From UHGV virus genome UHGV-0061407: a stretch of 30,325 nt of DNA; one strand, written 5' to 3'. The notes beneath the pieces were generated by a model. It searched no databases, had not been told where the DNA came from, and saw only the letters and a program-made list of their open reading frames with translations. Both the position numbers and the translations under genes were made by a program. Each line of letters opens with the position of its first letter. Within the stretch, counting starts at the first letter, position 1. Positions 3,167 to 11,876 of the stretch are shown here, piece after piece. Source of the DNA: a virus.

Positions 3167-4903
3167 TCACACAATGATGGGATTACTGAAAAAGTCGTCG
3201 ATATCGCCAGAATCATCCTCATAGCCTTCGGAGGCACCGATTGCCATAGCGCCCGCTACAATGCCGTCGATACGCCCGGTACTTTTTTTCTTGGCAAAAA
3301 TTCGGTTTTCTTTCTGATCAGCCTCCGTCACTGCTGAAGCCGCATTCCAGCGAAGACAAGGGTTCGTCCTGATGATAATGACGCTGTCATCAAGCAACTC
3401 TTCAAACAATTCGATGGAGTGAGGCATCCACAGCCCGGAATCTTTCGCTTTGTAATACCCTTGCCCATGAGGGATTAAGGGAACAGAAACAGATGCTTCC
3501 TCAAGCTCCGGCTCAAGATATTTAATGCGATACTGGTCGAAGGCGATGGCCTTGATATCAAACTTCTGAGTCAGATCTGCAATGCGCTGGGCAACAAAGC
3601 CGTATTTCACTGCTTTGCCAGGAGTGGTGTGGATGTGACCATCTCGCTCCCAGGCGTCATAAGGTACCCGGTCCGTTTTGGCCCGTTCCAGTAACGTATC
3701 TTTCGGGGTCCAGAACTCCACCAGCAACTTACGTTGTTTTGGAAAAAACAACGCCAGTGCCGTCAAATCACGCGATCCGGACAGGTCTAAACCGCCATAG
3801 CATTCCTCACCTTCCAGTTCATCTGGATCAAAGCTCTCCTCACAACCCATCCAGACATCACTGCTCATCCACGGATTAGCCGCGTCAACCCACTGACAGA
3901 AGTTAAGACGTCTGACGATGCTCTCTTTCGAAGGCATCCCGCGGGCCTGAGTCACCTGCTCACGAAGATAGCTTTCTTCAAAGGTGTGACCCAGCGAAGG
4001 GTTAGCTTTTTTCCAGCAGGACTCATCCTTGAAAGGATCGTCTCCTTCATCCAGAGAACAAATGAAGGCAAAAAAGCTGTCATCTTCTATCGAACCGGCA
4101 GAAACCTTTCGGCCGTATTCGTGATAGTCATAGCAGACGCTCGTTTTATCGTGCCCACTGTTGGTGATCATGAAAATCAGCGCCTGCCGACGACCTTTGG
4201 TACCGGCACGCATCATTTCAACAACCTGATTGCTTTTATGCTCGTGAACTTCATCAATAAGAGCACAATGCGGTCGCGGGCCGGACTGTCCGTCATCTGA
4301 ACTGATTGGACGAAAGAAGGAACCAGACTGAAGAAAAGCCAGGTTCCATTCCTTCCCGGCACCACCTGATTTCTGAATACGTGCGGAAAGAGCTGGAGAC
4401 TGATCGACCATCGCCACCGCATCACGGAAAAGGACCATTGCCTGGTCTTTCTTCGTGGCAGCGGCATAAACTTCAGCGCGTGCTTCTTTATCCGCAGTGA
4501 GACAGTAAAGCCCTATACCCGCAGACAGAGGGGATTTACCGGATCCCTTCCCGGACTCCACATAGACCATTCGGAACCGGCGAAAACCTCTGGCGTTTTT
4601 CCAGCCAAAAATCGAACCGACGATGAAGCACTGCCATGGCAGCAACACGAAAGGCTCGCCTTCGAAATCACCACCATTGAGCTTCAGAACTTTCGCAAAA
4701 TAGTCAATCGAGCGTTGCGCCGCCTCAACATCCCAGTGCAGACCACGGGCATGACATGACTGCAGATCGTTAAGGTGGCGCTGGCATGAGTTACGTATGT
4801 CAGGACCAGCCAGTTCTTTGCCCGAGGTTACATCCATCGCATATTGGGTTGCAGGATCAACCGAAGAACTTGTCGAGCGTGTCCTCTTCGGGGTCTTCGC
4901 CAT
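3167..4903 (-). CDS. terL: Terminase large subunit
   Basis: 578 aa; Walker A-like ATPase motif (VESGKGSGKS) and C-terminal nuclease-like region; alternative start at internal Met (MDVTSG, about 4837) would remove the 47-nt overlap with terS. Confidence 0.9.
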   Translation of the reverse strand: MAKTPKRTRSTSSSVDPATQYAMDVTSGKELAGPDIRNSCQRHLNDLQSCHARGLHWDVEAAQRSIDYFAKVLKLNGGDFEGEPFVLLPWQCFIVGSIFGWKNARGFRRFRMVYVESGKGSGKSPLSAGIGLYCLTADKEARAEVYAAATKKDQAMVLFRDAVAMVDQSPALSARIQKSGGAGKEWNLAFLQSGSFFRPISSDDGQSGPRPHCALIDEVHEHKSNQVVEMMRAGTKGRRQALIFMITNSGHDKTSVCYDYHEYGRKVSAGSIEDDSFFAFICSLDEGDDPFKDESCWKKANPSLGHTFEESYLREQVTQARGMPSKESIVRRLNFCQWVDAANPWMSSDVWMGCEESFDPDELEGEECYGGLDLSGSRDLTALALFFPKQRKLLVEFWTPKDTLLERAKTDRVPYDAWERDGHIHTTPGKAVKYGFVAQRIADLTQKFDIKAIAFDQYRIKYLEPELEEASVSVPLIPHGQGYYKAKDSGLWMPHSIELFEELLDDSVIIIRTNPCLRWNAASAVTEADQKENRIFAKKKSTGRIDGIVAGAMAIGASEGYEDDSGDIDDFFSNPIIV

Positions 4904-5321
4904 TCACTTTCACCTTCGTCCTTGCCGCTGGCGTCAGACCGAATTCAACCAGGTAACTTTTAAAACGGCGGTCGGCATCGGCCAACATCGAAACGGCCGG
5001 GTTAGCTTTGATAAGAAAACCACCCTCGGTCTGGACGGTATAGGTTCTTCCCTCTACTGCGATGGTGTCGCGCAACTGAAGAATATCAGCGTAAATATCG
5101 CATAGCCGTTCAAGGGCTAAGGTGTCGGCAACCGTTAAAACCCCCATCCCGTCAAGGAGAACAGTCAACCTTCCCCAGGCAACCTTTCCCCAGTCGGTCA
5201 GGTGCGCCGGCGGGCTTGGAATTTCTCGCGCCGGAGTCGGTTCTTTATCGTTGAGTTTACGTTTGCCCGGGTTGCCTGAGACCACTTTGAGGTGGGTCGG
5301 TTTCGGGCGTCGTCCTGCCAT
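4857..5321 (-). CDS. terS: Terminase small subunit (P27-like family)
   Basis: 154 aa ORF directly upstream of terL on the same strand; composition and size typical of P27-family small terminase. Confidence 0.75.
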   Translation of the reverse strand: MAGRRPKPTHLKVVSGNPGKRKLNDKEPTPAREIPSPPAHLTDWGKVAWGRLTVLLDGMGVLTVADTLALERLCDIYADILQLRDTIAVEGRTYTVQTEGGFLIKANPAVSMLADADRRFKSYLVEFGLTPAARTKVKVNGEDPEEDTLDKFFG

Positions 5322-5438: not shown

Positions 5439-5780
5439 TCATCTGAACCAGTGAGAATTTGGATCAAGCGGAATACCGTTTTCATCGCAGCCGATAACGG
5501 TGCCGCGCTTCTCCATTCGCTGCTTCGTTGAGTCATGGTGCTGCTTACACAGCCCTTGCCAGTTCTTCCGGCTCCAGAAAAGCTTTTGCGCTTTCGCTAT
5601 TGCCTTGCTGTCACCAGAACGCAGAGCCTCTTTCAGTTTATGCGGGATGATGTGGTCAACCACCGTGGCGGCTGTCACCCTGCCTTGCTCGTGGCACATG
5701 ACGCATAAGGGGTGCGCACGAAGGAATAGAAGACGCTCACGGTCCCATTTGCTGCCATATATGCGCGGTTCTTTGTTCAT
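5439..5780 (-). CDS. HNH endonuclease (packaging-associated)
   Basis: 113 aa with Cys/His-rich HNH-like motifs (CVMCHEQGR...VDHIIPH...LCKQHHDSTKQ); position upstream of terS as in HK97-like cos phages. Confidence 0.8.
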   Translation of the reverse strand: MNKEPRIYGSKWDRERLLFLRAHPLCVMCHEQGRVTAATVVDHIIPHKLKEALRSGDSKAIAKAQKLFWSRKNWQGLCKQHHDSTKQRMEKRGTVIGCDENGIPLDPNSHWFR

Positions 5781-5834
5781 GTTTTCGTTCCTTGAGCATT
5801 ATCACAGGCACTCAGTGAATGCCTGCTGTAATGC

Positions 5835-6080
5835 CTAGCTGGACTGCTCAGCAGCGGTATCAAAGAGCGGCAGCGCTTCAGTTGCTTCCTGCACTGCTTT
5901 CATCGTCTTTGCCACCACTTCAGTCTCTGATGTGACACGGCTGTATTGCTGGATGAATAGCTGATATTTAAGCGGACTATCCTGAACAAACTCTACAGCG
6001 ACTTTAGCTGCTGCTGTGTCGTAGTTCAGGGTGGAAAGCAGGTTCAGGCGAATCTGCTGGGCGTCGGTGATTTCTGCCAT
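5835..6080 (-). CDS. Hypothetical phage protein
   Basis: 81 aa ORF, same strand as packaging genes; no recognisable motif. Confidence 0.45.
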   Translation of the reverse strand: MAEITDAQQIRLNLLSTLNYDTAAAKVAVEFVQDSPLKYQLFIQQYSRVTSETEVVAKTMKAVQEATEALPLFDTAAEQSS

Positions 6081-6183
6081 GTCTTACCTCTGTGCGATGT
6101 GGGAGGCTTTATCAAACCACTTCGGAAAGCGGCTCCGTGATGCCATTAAAAAAGCCACCCGGAGGTGGCCTTTCTGATGGCTA

Positions 6184-6215
6184 AGAAAAAGGCCGCAAAA
6201 AAATGCGGCCTTTTG
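6184..6215. terminator. Terminator-like hairpin (ggccgca-aaaaaa-tgcggcc) flanked by A/T runs on both sides
   Basis: Perfect 7-bp GC-rich stem at 6192-6198/6205-6211, T-run 6212-6215 on plus strand and T-run on minus strand (complement of 6184-6190). Confidence 0.4.
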
Positions 6216-6657
6216 TCATGCACAGTTATCGATTAAATAAACTCTCAGGAGCCATCCGGGAGAGCCTCACTTAAACGAGTAACTAACCTCCGACAGACTG
6301 GTGTTGGGACGGAGGTGCAATGAGAGTAGTGTGTTTCATTTTTTTTCATACCAGCAACCACACAATAATGGCAGTTCTTCTTGTTAATCGATAACTGCTA
6401 TTCAATTAGTCTGGCCAGACGGATGATTATCCTGCCAGGGGTCATCACACTCACACGATGAAAATCTTTAAAATAAAACATTAGCCGGTTCACTCGCCTT
6501 CGAACAGGTGCAATGGCCTTGCACTGACGAAATTAGATTTAATCGTTCGTTGCCATCTTCCGTACAAGCCAAATAGTCACAAAAAAATAAAGGTTAAAAA
6601 GTGAGCTATTTACTGTCCTGTGGTGTATGGTTAGCAATCACTCACGAGGATAAAACC

Positions 6658-6828
6658 ATGTCTATGCTCAAAGACAAGATACGTACACTCAGGCCTGTAA
6701 AAAGCACCTGTCCTCACTGCTCTCGCCAGTCAACACATAGCCTGTCGAGAATTAAAAACGATATAACATTGATCTGCCCATACTGCGGAAATATTTTCCT
6801 CCCCTCAGAAAGTAAACCTGTTAAGTAA
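6658..6828 (+). CDS. Small zinc-ribbon protein (CxxC...CxxC), moron-like
   Basis: 56 aa from ATG 6658 with GAGGA RBS 9 nt upstream (track ORF 6601..6828 starts at an upstream GTG); CPHC and CPYC pairs; only plus-strand gene in a minus-strand block; hairpin actgaagc/gcttcagt downstream (6844-6877). Confidence 0.45.
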   Translation: MSMLKDKIRTLRPVKSTCPHCSRQSTHSLSRIKNDITLICPYCGNIFLPSESKPVK

Positions 6829-7042
6829 CTGATCGAATACTTTACTGAAGCTGATGTTCACTCTTAGGCTTCAGTAATCGAAACGTTGACATGCTTCTTC
6901 TCCTGCTTCTGGCAATAAAAAAGGCCGCCATTGGCGACCTGGGTTCAAATTATGTGTGTCAGGGCATATGACACGAGTAACCGCAGTAATAGCCACCGTT
7001 GGATTGCGGGTTGACTTTCTGCATATTCTCTGCAACCTACAT

Positions 7043-7237
7043 TTAAGTATAGATCGAACCAGCAGTCCCGATTATCGCAGCAAGCAGAAAGAAGGTGACG
7101 GCAGTTCTACGCATTTGCACGCCATAAAATGACAGAGCCAACCCGACGAAAGCAACAATTAAAACTGTCCACATATCCAGTAAGAGGAAGAGATATCCCT
7201 CGAAAGCACTGTCAATCAGTACGTCCACATCGCGCAT
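7043..7237 (-). CDS. Hypothetical small membrane protein
   Basis: 64 aa, two hydrophobic segments; poor RBS spacing, so weak. Confidence 0.3.
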   Translation of the reverse strand: MRDVDVLIDSAFEGYLFLLLDMWTVLIVAFVGLALSFYGVQMRRTAVTFFLLAAIIGTAGSIYT

Positions 7238-7406
7238 TCCTTTTAATAGATAAACTCCGCTGAAATACTATCACGATAGCGTTAGCAGACTATCTGCTAA
7301 TCATCAAGCATCGACTGACTTATTTTCGGTGGATTTCTTTTCGCAAGTTGTGTTAGCAATCAGCATCAGGGCGAGCCACCGCGCGGCATGCCCACATACA
7401 GGCTTC

Positions 7407-7646
7407 CTACATTTTGGTGCGAGCGATTGCCAGACAGCGCAAAGCTTCATCAATCTCCCGAGCCTGCTCAGCACTTAACATTGCCGGGCCATTACGGACA
7501 GCCAACAATTCACCTCGCTCGGTATCAAGCAAACTACATAAGTGGCGGCTGACGCCTTTGAGGCGGTTCATGCGCTCAATCTCGCCCGCGGTTAATGTGC
7601 GGTAGCCTTTTACAGTGCTGCCGTCCTGCGGTTTTGCTTCACTCAT
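7407..7646 (-). CDS. Hypothetical protein downstream of lysis cassette
   Basis: 79 aa ORF; stop/start overlap with o-spanin (7643-7646). Confidence 0.45.
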   Translation of the reverse strand: MSEAKPQDGSTVKGYRTLTAGEIERMNRLKGVSRHLCSLLDTERGELLAVRNGPAMLSAEQAREIDEALRCLAIARTKM

Positions 7647-7873
7647 TTCGTAGCCTTTTCGGTTGGTTGCGGGCAGTTAGCCTGCACTGATTTGTTGTGC
7701 GCCAGAATGTCGCGCTTGGTCTGCTTATCTAGCACGTCAATATCGTGGTCAGTCAGGTAGATAATCCGCACCCAGTTGCAGGCGGTATCAACCACCACCG
7801 GGGTGGGTAAATCTTTCGCGCAGCTCGCGATCAACATCGTCATCGCCCATACGCTTAACGTCTTCCTGTACAT
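7643..7873 (-). CDS. Outer-membrane spanin (Rz1-like lipoprotein), overlapping frame
   Basis: From internal Met (MYRKTLSVWAMTMLIASC...) signal peptide with lipobox I-A-S-C; Cys near C-terminus; begins inside the i-spanin gene in a different frame, the classic overlapped spanin architecture. Confidence 0.55.
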   Translation of the reverse strand: MYRKTLSVWAMTMLIASCAKDLPTPVVVDTACNWVRIIYLTDHDIDVLDKQTKRDILAHNKSVQANCPQPTEKATK

Positions 7874-9493: not shown

Positions 9494-9554
9494 GCCTGCA
9501 TGAAACCATGCGGGCTTTTTTTTTGCCCAAAGAAAAAGCCCACCGAAGTGGGCC
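9494..9554. terminator. Back-to-back terminator hairpins (plus-strand hairpin + T9; minus-strand hairpin ggcccac-uucg-gugggc + U5)
   Basis: Plus: stem 9494-9502/9507-9515 (one G-U), loop aaac, T-run 9516-9524. Minus: stem 9538-9543/9548-9553 with UUCG-type loop, followed by T-run (complement of 9531-9537). Confidence 0.5.
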
Positions 9555-9927
9555 TTACAGCTATCATCATTTTTTATTAGGTGTGGTGCCGGGTGCCTCC
9601 CGGTAAGTCGCCGCCAGTCCACAGACGACTCGCAATGCGCAAAAAAACATATCAGACTGGCAATGCCCCTCCGCATAGGGGGATTCACCACACGGATAAT
9701 TTAGGATGTAGTCATAGGCGGCGTCAATAACTGACACTCTGTCAAAGGCACCATTACGATGCCTTTTGCACAGTGCTAATCACTGGCTCTAATAAGGGGC
9801 CAGAGCAAAGCGATTACCCCGGCTACCAGCACTCCATCAGCCAGGATTGACATCATTTTGCTGGTGAAGTCGATAGCAACCACCAGAAACAAAAGCACCC
9901 CAGCTGCGGCCCAGCGAAGTTTACCGA

Positions 9928-10353
9928 TCACAGGTACTGGTCTAGTGGAAGTTGCAGAGCCTGGGCAATTTTCTTCAGCTGTTTCTCTTCTTCTTCCCCG
10001 ATGCCGTCGTTATCAGCTACATCAAGACACAGGCAAAGAACATCGACAGCGTCATCCGTCCCGGCAACATCAGCCAGTTCGCGCAGCGCCTGAGCGTTGG
10101 CTGAACGCGGTGATGCTTCATAGCGAGCGCGAATATTCGAACTCATCTGGGCAATTTCACCAGCAAATGGCGCGAATGCCGGGAGGGCCGAAATAGTCTT
10201 CTCCAGCACTGCAATCTCTTTTGCATCGCAGGTACCATCGGCGTATGCAATCGAGTACGCTCCCCAGACCGTGGCTTCTACGGCATCGCGGTTTTCCATT
10301 TTTTTCACTTCAACAACGGCTTTACGGGCTTTCTTTTTAAAAATACCAAACAT
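9928..10353 (-). CDS. TerB-like (tellurite-resistance TerB family) protein
   Basis: 141 aa; two repeats of the TerB-like pattern (AYADGTCDAKEIAVL and LDVADNDGIGEEEEKQLKKIAQAL) matching what I recall of TerB (a.aDG...eE...l..ia..l). Confidence 0.6.
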   Translation of the reverse strand: MFGIFKKKARKAVVEVKKMENRDAVEATVWGAYSIAYADGTCDAKEIAVLEKTISALPAFAPFAGEIAQMSSNIRARYEASPRSANAQALRELADVAGTDDAVDVLCLCLDVADNDGIGEEEEKQLKKIAQALQLPLDQYL

Positions 10354-10796: not shown

Positions 10797-11876
10797 CTAA
10801 GGTAAGGGATTTGGTTGTGGTGGCCGGTGCTCCAGCAAATTACGCATTTCACTGACCGTCTGTTCAAATCTCTCGGTTTCCAGTTCGACACCTAGCCCCC
10901 TTCGCCCGAGAAGAGCAGCCTGCTTGAGCGTTGAGCCTGATCCAAAAAAGAAATCAGCTACAACATCACCCGGGCGGCTACTCGCTGTGATTATCTGCTC
11001 CAGCATATCCGCAGGCTTTTCACATGGGTGTTTACCTGGATAAAACTGAACAGGCTTATGAGTCCAGACGTCGGTATATGGCACCGTGACTGATACGCTG
11101 AATGGTCGCCGTAAACGGTAATATTCCTGCTGGAGTTCAGAATATTTTCGGCTTAACGATTGCCAGGTGGCGACAAGCTGGTGGTGAGGTTTTCCCAGTT
11201 CGTTGCGCGAGTGCTTATCCATGGCGATTTTTTGAAACAAAGCCTGCAACTTTAAATAATCGGCTTCGTTCGGTAGCTGCCACTGACTAAGGCCAAACCA
11301 GTGGGAAACCATATTTTTCTTACCTGTGGCTTCTGCAATCTGAGCCGACGTCACGCCAAGAGATTCCCGTGCATCACGGAAGTAAGAAATTAAAGGCGTC
11401 ATGACGTGTTGCTTTAACTCATTACACTTTGCGGCATATCCATCGTCTTTGGGCCTGTATGGCCCCTGATAATGGTCGGCAAAAATGATACGCTCAGTGG
11501 CAGGGAAATAAGCGCGTAAGCTCTCCTTATTGCAGCCGTTCCATCGCCCTGATGGCTTAGCCCAGATGATATGGTTGAGCAGGTTAAACCGCTCTCTCAC
11601 CAACAGCTCAATATCCGCTGCCAGGCGGTGCCCACAGAACAGATACATGCTGCCGGCAGGTTTTAACACTCGCCAGAACTGTGCCAGACAGCTATCCAGC
11701 CAACGTAAATAGTCTTCGTCCCCCTTCCATTGGTTATCCCAGCCGTTTGGCTTCACCTTAAAATAAGGCGGATCGGTAACAATAAGATCAATGGAGTTAT
11801 CGGGTAGCGATGGGAGGTATTGCAGGCAATCAGCATTGATTAAATCAATACTGGATATTTTTACAGTATTTTTCAT
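10797..11876 (-). CDS. Orphan DNA methyltransferase, beta-class amino-MTase (N6-adenine or N4-cytosine)
   Basis: 359 aa; motif IV DPPY (LIVTDPPYF) near N-terminus and AdoMet motif I (DFFFGSGST) near C-terminus, the order typical of beta-class MTases; no adjacent restriction endonuclease ORF. Confidence 0.85.
   Translation of the reverse strand: MKNTVKISSIDLINADCLQYLPSLPDNSIDLIVTDPPYFKVKPNGWDNQWKGDEDYLRWLDSCLAQFWRVLKPAGSMYLFCGHRLAADIELLVRERFNLLNHIIWAKPSGRWNGCNKESLRAYFPATERIIFADHYQGPYRPKDDGYAAKCNELKQHVMTPLISYFRDARESLGVTSAQIAEATGKKNMVSHWFGLSQWQLPNEADYLKLQALFQKIAMDKHSRNELGKPHHQLVATWQSLSRKYSELQQEYYRLRRPFSVSVTVPYTDVWTHKPVQFYPGKHPCEKPADMLEQIITASSRPGDVVADFFFGSGSTLKQAALLGRRGLGVELETERFEQTVSEMRNLLEHRPPQPNPLP

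Follow-up and report, generated by a model that had tools for sequence, protein, structure and literature searches.

A perfect inverted repeat between the lysis and packaging genes of a Klebsiella prophage overlaps a member of a conserved family of sRNA-like elements

The window analysed here, a 30,325-nucleotide stretch of UHGV virus genome UHGV-0061407 taken at its full length, is a Klebsiella pneumoniae lambdoid prophage that is 97% identical to phage Kp4866-6 across 72% of 25 kb. All of its late genes are on the minus strand. The inverted repeat considered below lies between the lysis and packaging modules, and the neighbourhood, in late-gene order, contains the following genes and features:

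9525-9722, minus strand: copy of the STnc100 sRNA (RF02076, 99.8 bits), directly ahead of the holin, where a pR'-leader/6S-like RNA would lie
about 9251-7643, minus strand: holin, endolysin and spanins
7407-7646, minus strand: Acb2/Tad1-like ORF of 79 aa (Pfam Acb2/Tad1 hairpin domain, E = 3.7e-7, above the cut-off)
between the Acb2/Tad1-like ORF and the YnfU-family gene in late-gene order: small membrane ORF
6658-6828, plus strand: YnfU-family zinc-ribbon gene of 56 aa (Pfam PF23499, E = 4.5e-14), divergent from the RNA element described below
5835-6080, minus strand: DUF2560 gene (Pfam PF10834, E = 3.8e-18), directly 3' of the terminators of that element
5439-5780, minus strand: HNH gene
4857-5321, minus strand: terminase small subunit (terS)
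3167-4903, minus strand: terminase large subunit

The gene at 7407-7646 has the spanins on one side and the RNA element on the other, and its domain match makes the product a candidate nucleotide sponge against CBASS or Thoeris. With STnc100 at 9525-9722 and the RNA element, the lysis cassette has an sRNA-like locus on either side, and STnc100 copies are also present in two related loci (L004 and L008). Farther upstream of the late region are a TerB-domain ORF (9928-10353, minus strand) and an N6/N4 DNA methyltransferase (10797-11876, minus strand); TerB is listed as a typical neighbour of prophage sRNAs in a preprint on the Pas sRNAs (10.64898/2026.05.13.724894). A promoter-like site for the YnfU-family gene is found at 6550-6577. 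In related contigs, this gene goes with the perfect-repeat haplotype, and those loci have common upstream flanks. The DUF2560 family gene is placed upstream of the RNA element, not downstream, in many relatives.

The region around the repeat is a variable accessory region, since Kp4866-6 has the whole block 5782-7673 (1.9 kb) swapped out and carries 887 unrelated bases in its place (6282-7168 of L126). The replaced block comprises the DUF2560 gene, the RNA element, ynfU and the Acb2-like gene. Identity between Kp4866-6 and the window is about 97% on the terminase/HNH side and 83% from 7674, where similarity resumes, with a clean mosaic junction where the HNH gene ends.

A preliminary description of the window, made from the sequence alone, had reported a 14-bp perfect inverted repeat in this region. 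A repeat search and an exact pattern search both recovered it: the left arm, CAGTTATCGATTAA, occupies 6223-6236, and its reverse complement, TTAATCGATAACTG, occupies 6384-6397, with 14 of 14 positions matching. The left-arm position and the spacer length given earlier were each off by one base; the spacer is 147 nt, and the whole unit (6223-6397) measures 175 bp. First-order Markov simulations of the window (400 runs) put the chance expectation for perfect 14-nt inverted repeats no more than 200 nt apart at 0.0275 per window, in agreement with the earlier rough estimate of 0.03, and this pair is the sole example in the window. The 14-nt repeat is thus confirmed and is non-random. The only other perfect 12-nt inverted repeat with a gap of up to 200 nt is at 24928-24939/24980-24991, where 0.47 would be expected by chance. 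The inner hairpin noted previously was also seen in both sequence and folds: CCTCCGAC (6287-6294) pairs with GACGGAGG (6308-6315) over 7 of 8 positions.

Comparison with related prophages showed that the left arm and the inner hairpin belong to a conserved structured module that runs on the minus strand from ≈6340 to 6184, a length of ≈155–165 nt, and consists of a leader, a hairpin (H1), a helix (P2) around a second hairpin (H2), terminator 1 and a second terminator. Its parts, with the two arms denoted D and U, are:

6178-6340, minus strand: conserved RNA core with 5' leader, H1, P2 enclosing H2, and terminator 1 (covariance model R1, 172.7 bits, E = 6e-44)
6384-6397, minus strand: right arm U, 5'-CAGUUAUCGAUUAA-3', 45–60 nt upstream of the core in a faster-evolving flank
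6287-6315, minus strand: hairpin H1, the cctccg...cggagg hairpin of the preliminary description, with the CA-rich motif (G)CCAACACCAG in its loop
6271-6286, minus strand: segment P (UAGUUACUCGUUUAAG), which forms the 5' side of helix P2 by pairing with arm D and repeats arm U imperfectly in direct orientation
6242-6264, minus strand: hairpin H2 (CUCUC...GAGAG), which carries the 13-mer UGGCUCCUGAGAG at 6242-6254
6223-6236, minus strand: left arm D, 5'-UUAAUCGAUAACUG-3', the 3' strand of helix P2
6182-6214, minus strand: intrinsic terminator 1, a AAAAGGCCGCA-loop-UGCGGCCUUUU hairpin with a U run behind it, where the RNA presumably ends and where homology within the family stops sharply on the 3' side
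6142-6181, minus strand: second, tandem intrinsic terminator, GCCACCUCCGGGUGGC followed by UUUUUU, common to A-type and SEN34-type members

Distant matches to 6085-6660 were found by BLAST in Salmonella phage SEN34, in several Klebsiella prophage records and in one E. coli prophage. Every one of them falls between the lysis genes and terS, despite unrelated terminases beyond the element: Terminase_4 with HNH in the window, a DUF1073-portal type in SEN34, and a terS of about 330 aa in the Klebsiella phages. A pattern derived from the best-conserved block matched at least 120 IMG/VR contigs, and among the matches listed there were 64 distinct variants, which form five subfamilies, with type A being that of the window. 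In E. coli, matches were present in 10 of 5,426 genomes, none spanning more than about a quarter of the query, and the element is essentially absent from this species. Clustering of neighbouring ORFs gave the order endolysin/spanin, small genes, element, and terS at about +340 nt in 69 loci. In ≈70 related loci, an ORF for a predicted lipoprotein of 53 aa (MKRIMLAVFVICGALSLSGC...) lies about +270 nt downstream on the opposite strand, convergent with the element; the window lacks this ORF. In many prophages the element is present as two diverged paralogues ≈1 kb apart (978–1301 bp), the first of D type and the second of C or A type, often with a DUF2560 gene between them (loci with such pairs include L003, L011, L016, L019, L025, L030 and L045). 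One locus (L034) has a chimeric copy that retains only H2 and the terminator.

The boundaries of the element are sharp. In BLAST comparisons between family members, homology breaks 70–80 nt upstream of an anchor at 6264 (≈6334–6344) and, on the right-hand side, at +57/+63 from the same anchor (≈6185–6179), which is the end of terminator 1; in the A and SEN34 types it extends to the second terminator. Identity in the A-type alignment is ≈75% upstream of ≈6349 and ≈97% downstream. The covariance model built from the family found exactly one copy in the window (6178-6340) and none in Kp4866-6. Within the core, the 13-mer UGGCUCCUGAGAG was exact in 116 of 120 members recovered via an independent H1 anchor, which partly controls for the inflation of apparent invariance that comes from gathering the family by sequence patterns. 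The strand of H2 that faces the 13-mer (the 5' strand) varies and the 3' strand does not, and the 13-mer is therefore conserved as sequence, not through structure alone.

A consensus structure was calculated with RNAalifold from 27 sequences that cover all five subfamilies. It contains H1 (6315-6287), P2, H2 (6264-6242) and the terminator, with P2 formed by YAGUUAC.CG (6286-6271) and CG.UAACUG (inside 6236-6223) around H2. The five-way alignment has conserved minus-strand blocks, indels of 2–5 nt and compensatory changes in the hairpin. Two pairs between D and P, the segment just after H1, covary across the family (CG/AU/GC and GC/AU/GU by RNAalifold), as do pairs in the stem of H1 (UA/AU and UA/CG), the loop of which is almost invariant (alignments A3 and A5). 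Terminator 1 has the form GGCCGCA-U7-UGCGGCC followed by UUUUUCUU (6214-6182), that is, an intrinsic terminator with a 3' U tail, and the G·U pairs in its stem are possible on the minus strand only. Hairpins homologous to it were predicted as minus-strand terminators in two related loci (L001 and L005), and a homologue of the second terminator was predicted in another (L015).

Standard pairs made up 98.4% of the 836 cells on the consensus structure, compared to 37–47% in slid controls. Changes on both sides were seen at 5 pairs, amounting to 32 cells against 9.8 cells in shuffled alignments, and none of 500 shuffles reached the observed value. When the structure was read on the opposite strand, pairing fell to 91.9%, because 57 of the cells are G·U, which argues for a minus-strand RNA and against both a plus-strand RNA and a DNA cruciform. 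Between diverged relatives, the structure is thus kept by compensatory changes and by G·U changes specific to one strand, as expected of a structured non-coding RNA.

The family-wide partner of arm D is P (6271-6286), and its pairing with this adjacent segment accounts for the conservation of D. Arm U is complementary to D because it is a diverged, imperfect direct copy of P, and in the sequences compared, the match between U and D is perfect only in the window's own lineage. The preliminary description had offered a long-stem small RNA as one option. The structured, RNA-like element on the minus strand was borne out, and a 14-bp long stem as its architecture was not. We considered the possibility that U is a remnant of a decayed upstream duplicate of the RNA, and rejected it: the covariance model found nothing at 6340-6660.

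Folding the RNA without U gave the P2 helix (P:D). With U included, the U:D pairing was favoured, at −81.0 kcal/mol compared to −73.1 kcal/mol when U was blocked, and with a pair probability of 0.93 against 0.06 for P:D. How much weight the long stem deserves is thus a matter of the start site of the RNA, since U:D wins only if U is transcribed. If the transcript started upstream of 6397, U would capture D, unzip P2 and close the RNA, and a switch between long and short isoforms would alter the stability of the RNA or the exposure of its seeds. The ≈38 A-type loci collected by scanning viral sequences, genomes and metagenomes have six U haplotypes between them, which pair with D at 14, 13, 13, 12, 13 and 13 of 14 positions with G·U allowed, so that each keeps 12–14 pairs; the genome and metagenome scans added no further U haplotypes. 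Across the A-type haplotypes, 93% of U:D cells are paired, and 14 of the 27 changed cells are wobble pairs valid on the RNA strand only, an excess of wobble-compatible changes in U that is suggestive but not significant by a rough count. C- and D-type members have CAGTTA-like segments about equally far upstream, and the promoter scan gave nothing between U and the core. Against a functional long stem, D is almost invariant and no pair is changed on both sides, there being no compensatory change in U:D among the six A-type haplotypes, and U evolves like its flanks (≈71% vs. ≈70% identity in divergent A-types). When the 100 nt upstream were paired with the D region, the duplex energy beat shuffles only in the A-type, with z scores of about −5 for the perfect haplotype and −1 to −2.8 for other A-types, and could not be told from that of shuffles in subfamilies B–E. 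Furthermore, RNAalifold picks P:D even on A-type alignments that contain U, and homology between subfamilies ends at ≈6340, not at 6397. We consider a functional role for the long stem distinctly unlikely; in the best reading, it is a by-product or an optional alternative pairing.

The start of the RNA was examined with a consensus scan, which found no consensus sigma-70 promoter in the RNA orientation in this part of the window or in four homologous loci. Alignments A3 and A4 suggest a candidate non-consensus promoter region at 6333-6376 on the minus strand, in which a conserved box, AACUGCCAU (6376-6368, with a −35-like CTGCCA), is followed by 18 nt and then TATGAA (6350-6345). A T(G/A/U)AAA(C/U) motif at 6338-6333 precedes an A/U-rich run. 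This run, which lies before the core, could equally be a candidate RNase E site. Judging by the homology boundary, the RNA probably starts near 6326-6340, which would place U at about −46 to −59, outside the RNA.

Two readings at the level of DNA were weighed against this RNA. The preliminary description had suggested a miniature inverted-repeat transposable element (MITE), and the unit does resemble MITEs in its size and in having perfect 14-bp terminal inverted repeats around about 150 bp. Unlike MITEs, it is single-copy and undispersed. No other copy is present in the window, the exact unit occurs in just 6 of 2.9 million viral contigs, once each and always in the same prophage context, and there were no plasmid matches to it. 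There is no target-site duplication: the flanks, ...GTCATGCA|CAGTT and AACTG|CTATTCAA, contain no direct repeat. Kp4866-6, the closest relative and one without the unit, misses the whole 1.9-kb block rather than a precise unit, and the arms are embedded in a larger block of homology, with D inside the conserved RNA helix and homology running past the arm to the terminator. We regard a MITE as extremely improbable. A site for a dimeric DNA-binding protein had also been proposed. In this case, the arms would be sites for a regulator that acts by DNA looping, or by binding both upstream of the promoter and within the gene, and that controls the RNA or the divergent ynfU. Consistent with such a role, U would sit at about −46 to −59 relative to a start at the candidate promoter, each arm has an ATCGAT core, and a partial third copy, TTAATCG (6539-6545), lies near the promoter-like site of ynfU. 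The arms are 147 bp apart, however, and matches of 7–9 nt are at chance level in 800 nt; neither the right arm on its own across subfamilies nor the arm pair outside one lineage is conserved, and no candidate regulator was identified. The conservation of D needs no protein site, because RNA pairing, including G·U pairs possible on one strand only, explains it. Regulator sites are accordingly very improbable.

Among readings at the level of RNA, the main functional rival to a trans-acting sRNA is a cis-acting part of the late operon, in which the module would serve for processing and termination. In the lysogen, it would keep unregulated transcription from reaching the packaging genes, and it would mark a site of RNase cleavage or stabilisation in the Q-antiterminated late transcript. 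The late-gene orientation and lysis-to-packaging position in every locus examined agree with this, as do the one or two strong intrinsic terminators, the A/U-rich stretch ahead of the core in all subfamilies, and the failure to find a consensus promoter of its own in the loci scanned. On the other hand, neither a near-invariant single-stranded motif of 13 nt nor a conserved hairpin loop is required for termination or processing; the two diverged paralogues ≈1 kb apart in many prophages are as in sRNA families; and Kp4866-6 and similar close relatives without the element show that it is accessory and outside the late-operon core. We consider the cis-acting reading unlikely, if well short of negligible. 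Another suggestion, which we hold to be quite improbable, is that the element is a prophage regulatory or anti-defence RNA family with two exclusive folds, in which, in the window lineage, U would unzip P2 in a long isoform (ΔΔG of about −8 kcal/mol). The switch would alter the exposure of UGGCUCCUGAGAG and the CA-rich motifs as decoys or seeds directed at host RNAs or at defence systems, and the position beside the Acb2/Tad1-like anti-defence gene fits this idea.

The repeat is probably, on balance, a side feature of a prophage sRNA-like "moron", that is, a terminator-ended, trans-acting RNA. This reading fits the accessory slot, the presence or absence in close relatives, the paralogue pairs, the combination of a variable 5' leader with a conserved 3' scaffold, and the conserved unpaired motifs. 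The putative RNA would be expressed from the prophage as a trans-acting, terminator-ended sRNA that is probably chaperone-dependent, and its seeds against host or competitor transcripts may be the H1 loop and the 13-mer, in which a CUCCU resembles an anti-Shine-Dalgarno sequence. The tandem terminators might also shield the packaging genes from unregulated read-through. The module occupies the accessory ("moron"/anti-defence) slot between lysis and packaging genes in lambdoid prophages of Klebsiella, Salmonella and E. coli with any terminase type. In the window and SEN34, searches for seed complements and duplex scans of translation-initiation regions gave no consistent targets.

The region itself was compared with Rfam at E ≤ 10, and the window and six homologous loci were compared at gathering thresholds; no known family accounted for the element, and neither the window element nor its homologues reached any threshold. 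The best match was to STnc100 (RF02076), at 27.1 bits where the gathering score is 47; the alignment skips 142 model positions and covers mainly the terminator. Other weak, terminator-driven matches included STnc40, MicA and GcvB. No tRNA or tmRNA was found in the window. Nor does the repeat region contain a conserved ORF: indels of 1, 2, 3 and 5 nt between subfamilies fall inside the core, and inspection of the alignments showed that neither a start codon nor the reading frames of the core are kept across subfamilies. A GTG ORF of 38 aa (6361..6245) and an AUG ORF of 18 codons were rejected, being unconserved and broken by indels. In HK97-like phages, cos lies between HNH and terS. A cos or terminase-binding site was rejected, since the element precedes unrelated terminase types. 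Likenesses to CRISPR I-F repeats, boxB/nut, put and hammerhead sequences, as well as to CsrA sites and the 3' end of tRNA, were also set aside, as the relevant bases are not conserved across subfamilies. A search of the literature by topic and by sequence string found no description of the element.

The closest parallels are STnc100 (RF02076), PasD and lambda 6S RNA, which, like the element, are intergenic RNAs from the late region of lambdoid prophages, lie on the late-gene strand and end in an intrinsic terminator. They differ in position, being upstream of the holin (Q/pR' leader), whereas the element is downstream of the lysis cassette; the STnc100 copy of the window is 3.2 kb away from it. 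Identity with the Pas sRNAs or with lambda PreS/LPR2 was rejected, as these occupy other loci. The Pas/STnc100 sRNAs are described as diverse, multi-copy and horizontally spread (preprint 10.64898/2026.05.13.724894). The anti-sRNAs AgvB and AsxR of EHEC (Tree et al. 2014, PMC4104026; RF02702 and RF02703) likewise come from lambdoid prophages and target the RNA network of the host, and neither of their Rfam models matches the element, even at E ≤ 10. The CA-rich H1 loop, CCAACACC, may resemble the CA-rich sites of GcvB, the sRNA that AgvB sponges, and no more than about 6 contiguous bases of the element would be complementary to the GcvB seed.

The slot itself also has a precedent. The lambda bor gene is a moron between Rz and cos. 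The element shares with bor and other lambdoid morons the position between lysis and packaging, a terminator of its own, and presence or absence among close relatives, and in many relatives a small lipoprotein gene lies on the opposite strand beside it, as bor does in lambda. It differs from such morons in that the cargo is RNA, not protein, and in that no promoter was found for it.

The element is widespread and adds to the known class of prophage sRNA-like genes, and it is absent from Rfam. The object of interest is this RNA family rather than the repeat, and the interest is moderate until expression and targets are demonstrated. The repeat itself offers a more general lesson, namely that a statistically improbable inverted repeat can arise from an RNA helix together with a diverged copy of one of its strands. 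Prophage sRNAs rewire host gene expression, and they are poorly catalogued beyond E. coli and Salmonella. If it is expressed, the RNA described here would be a candidate regulator of Klebsiella physiology or of phage–host conflict.
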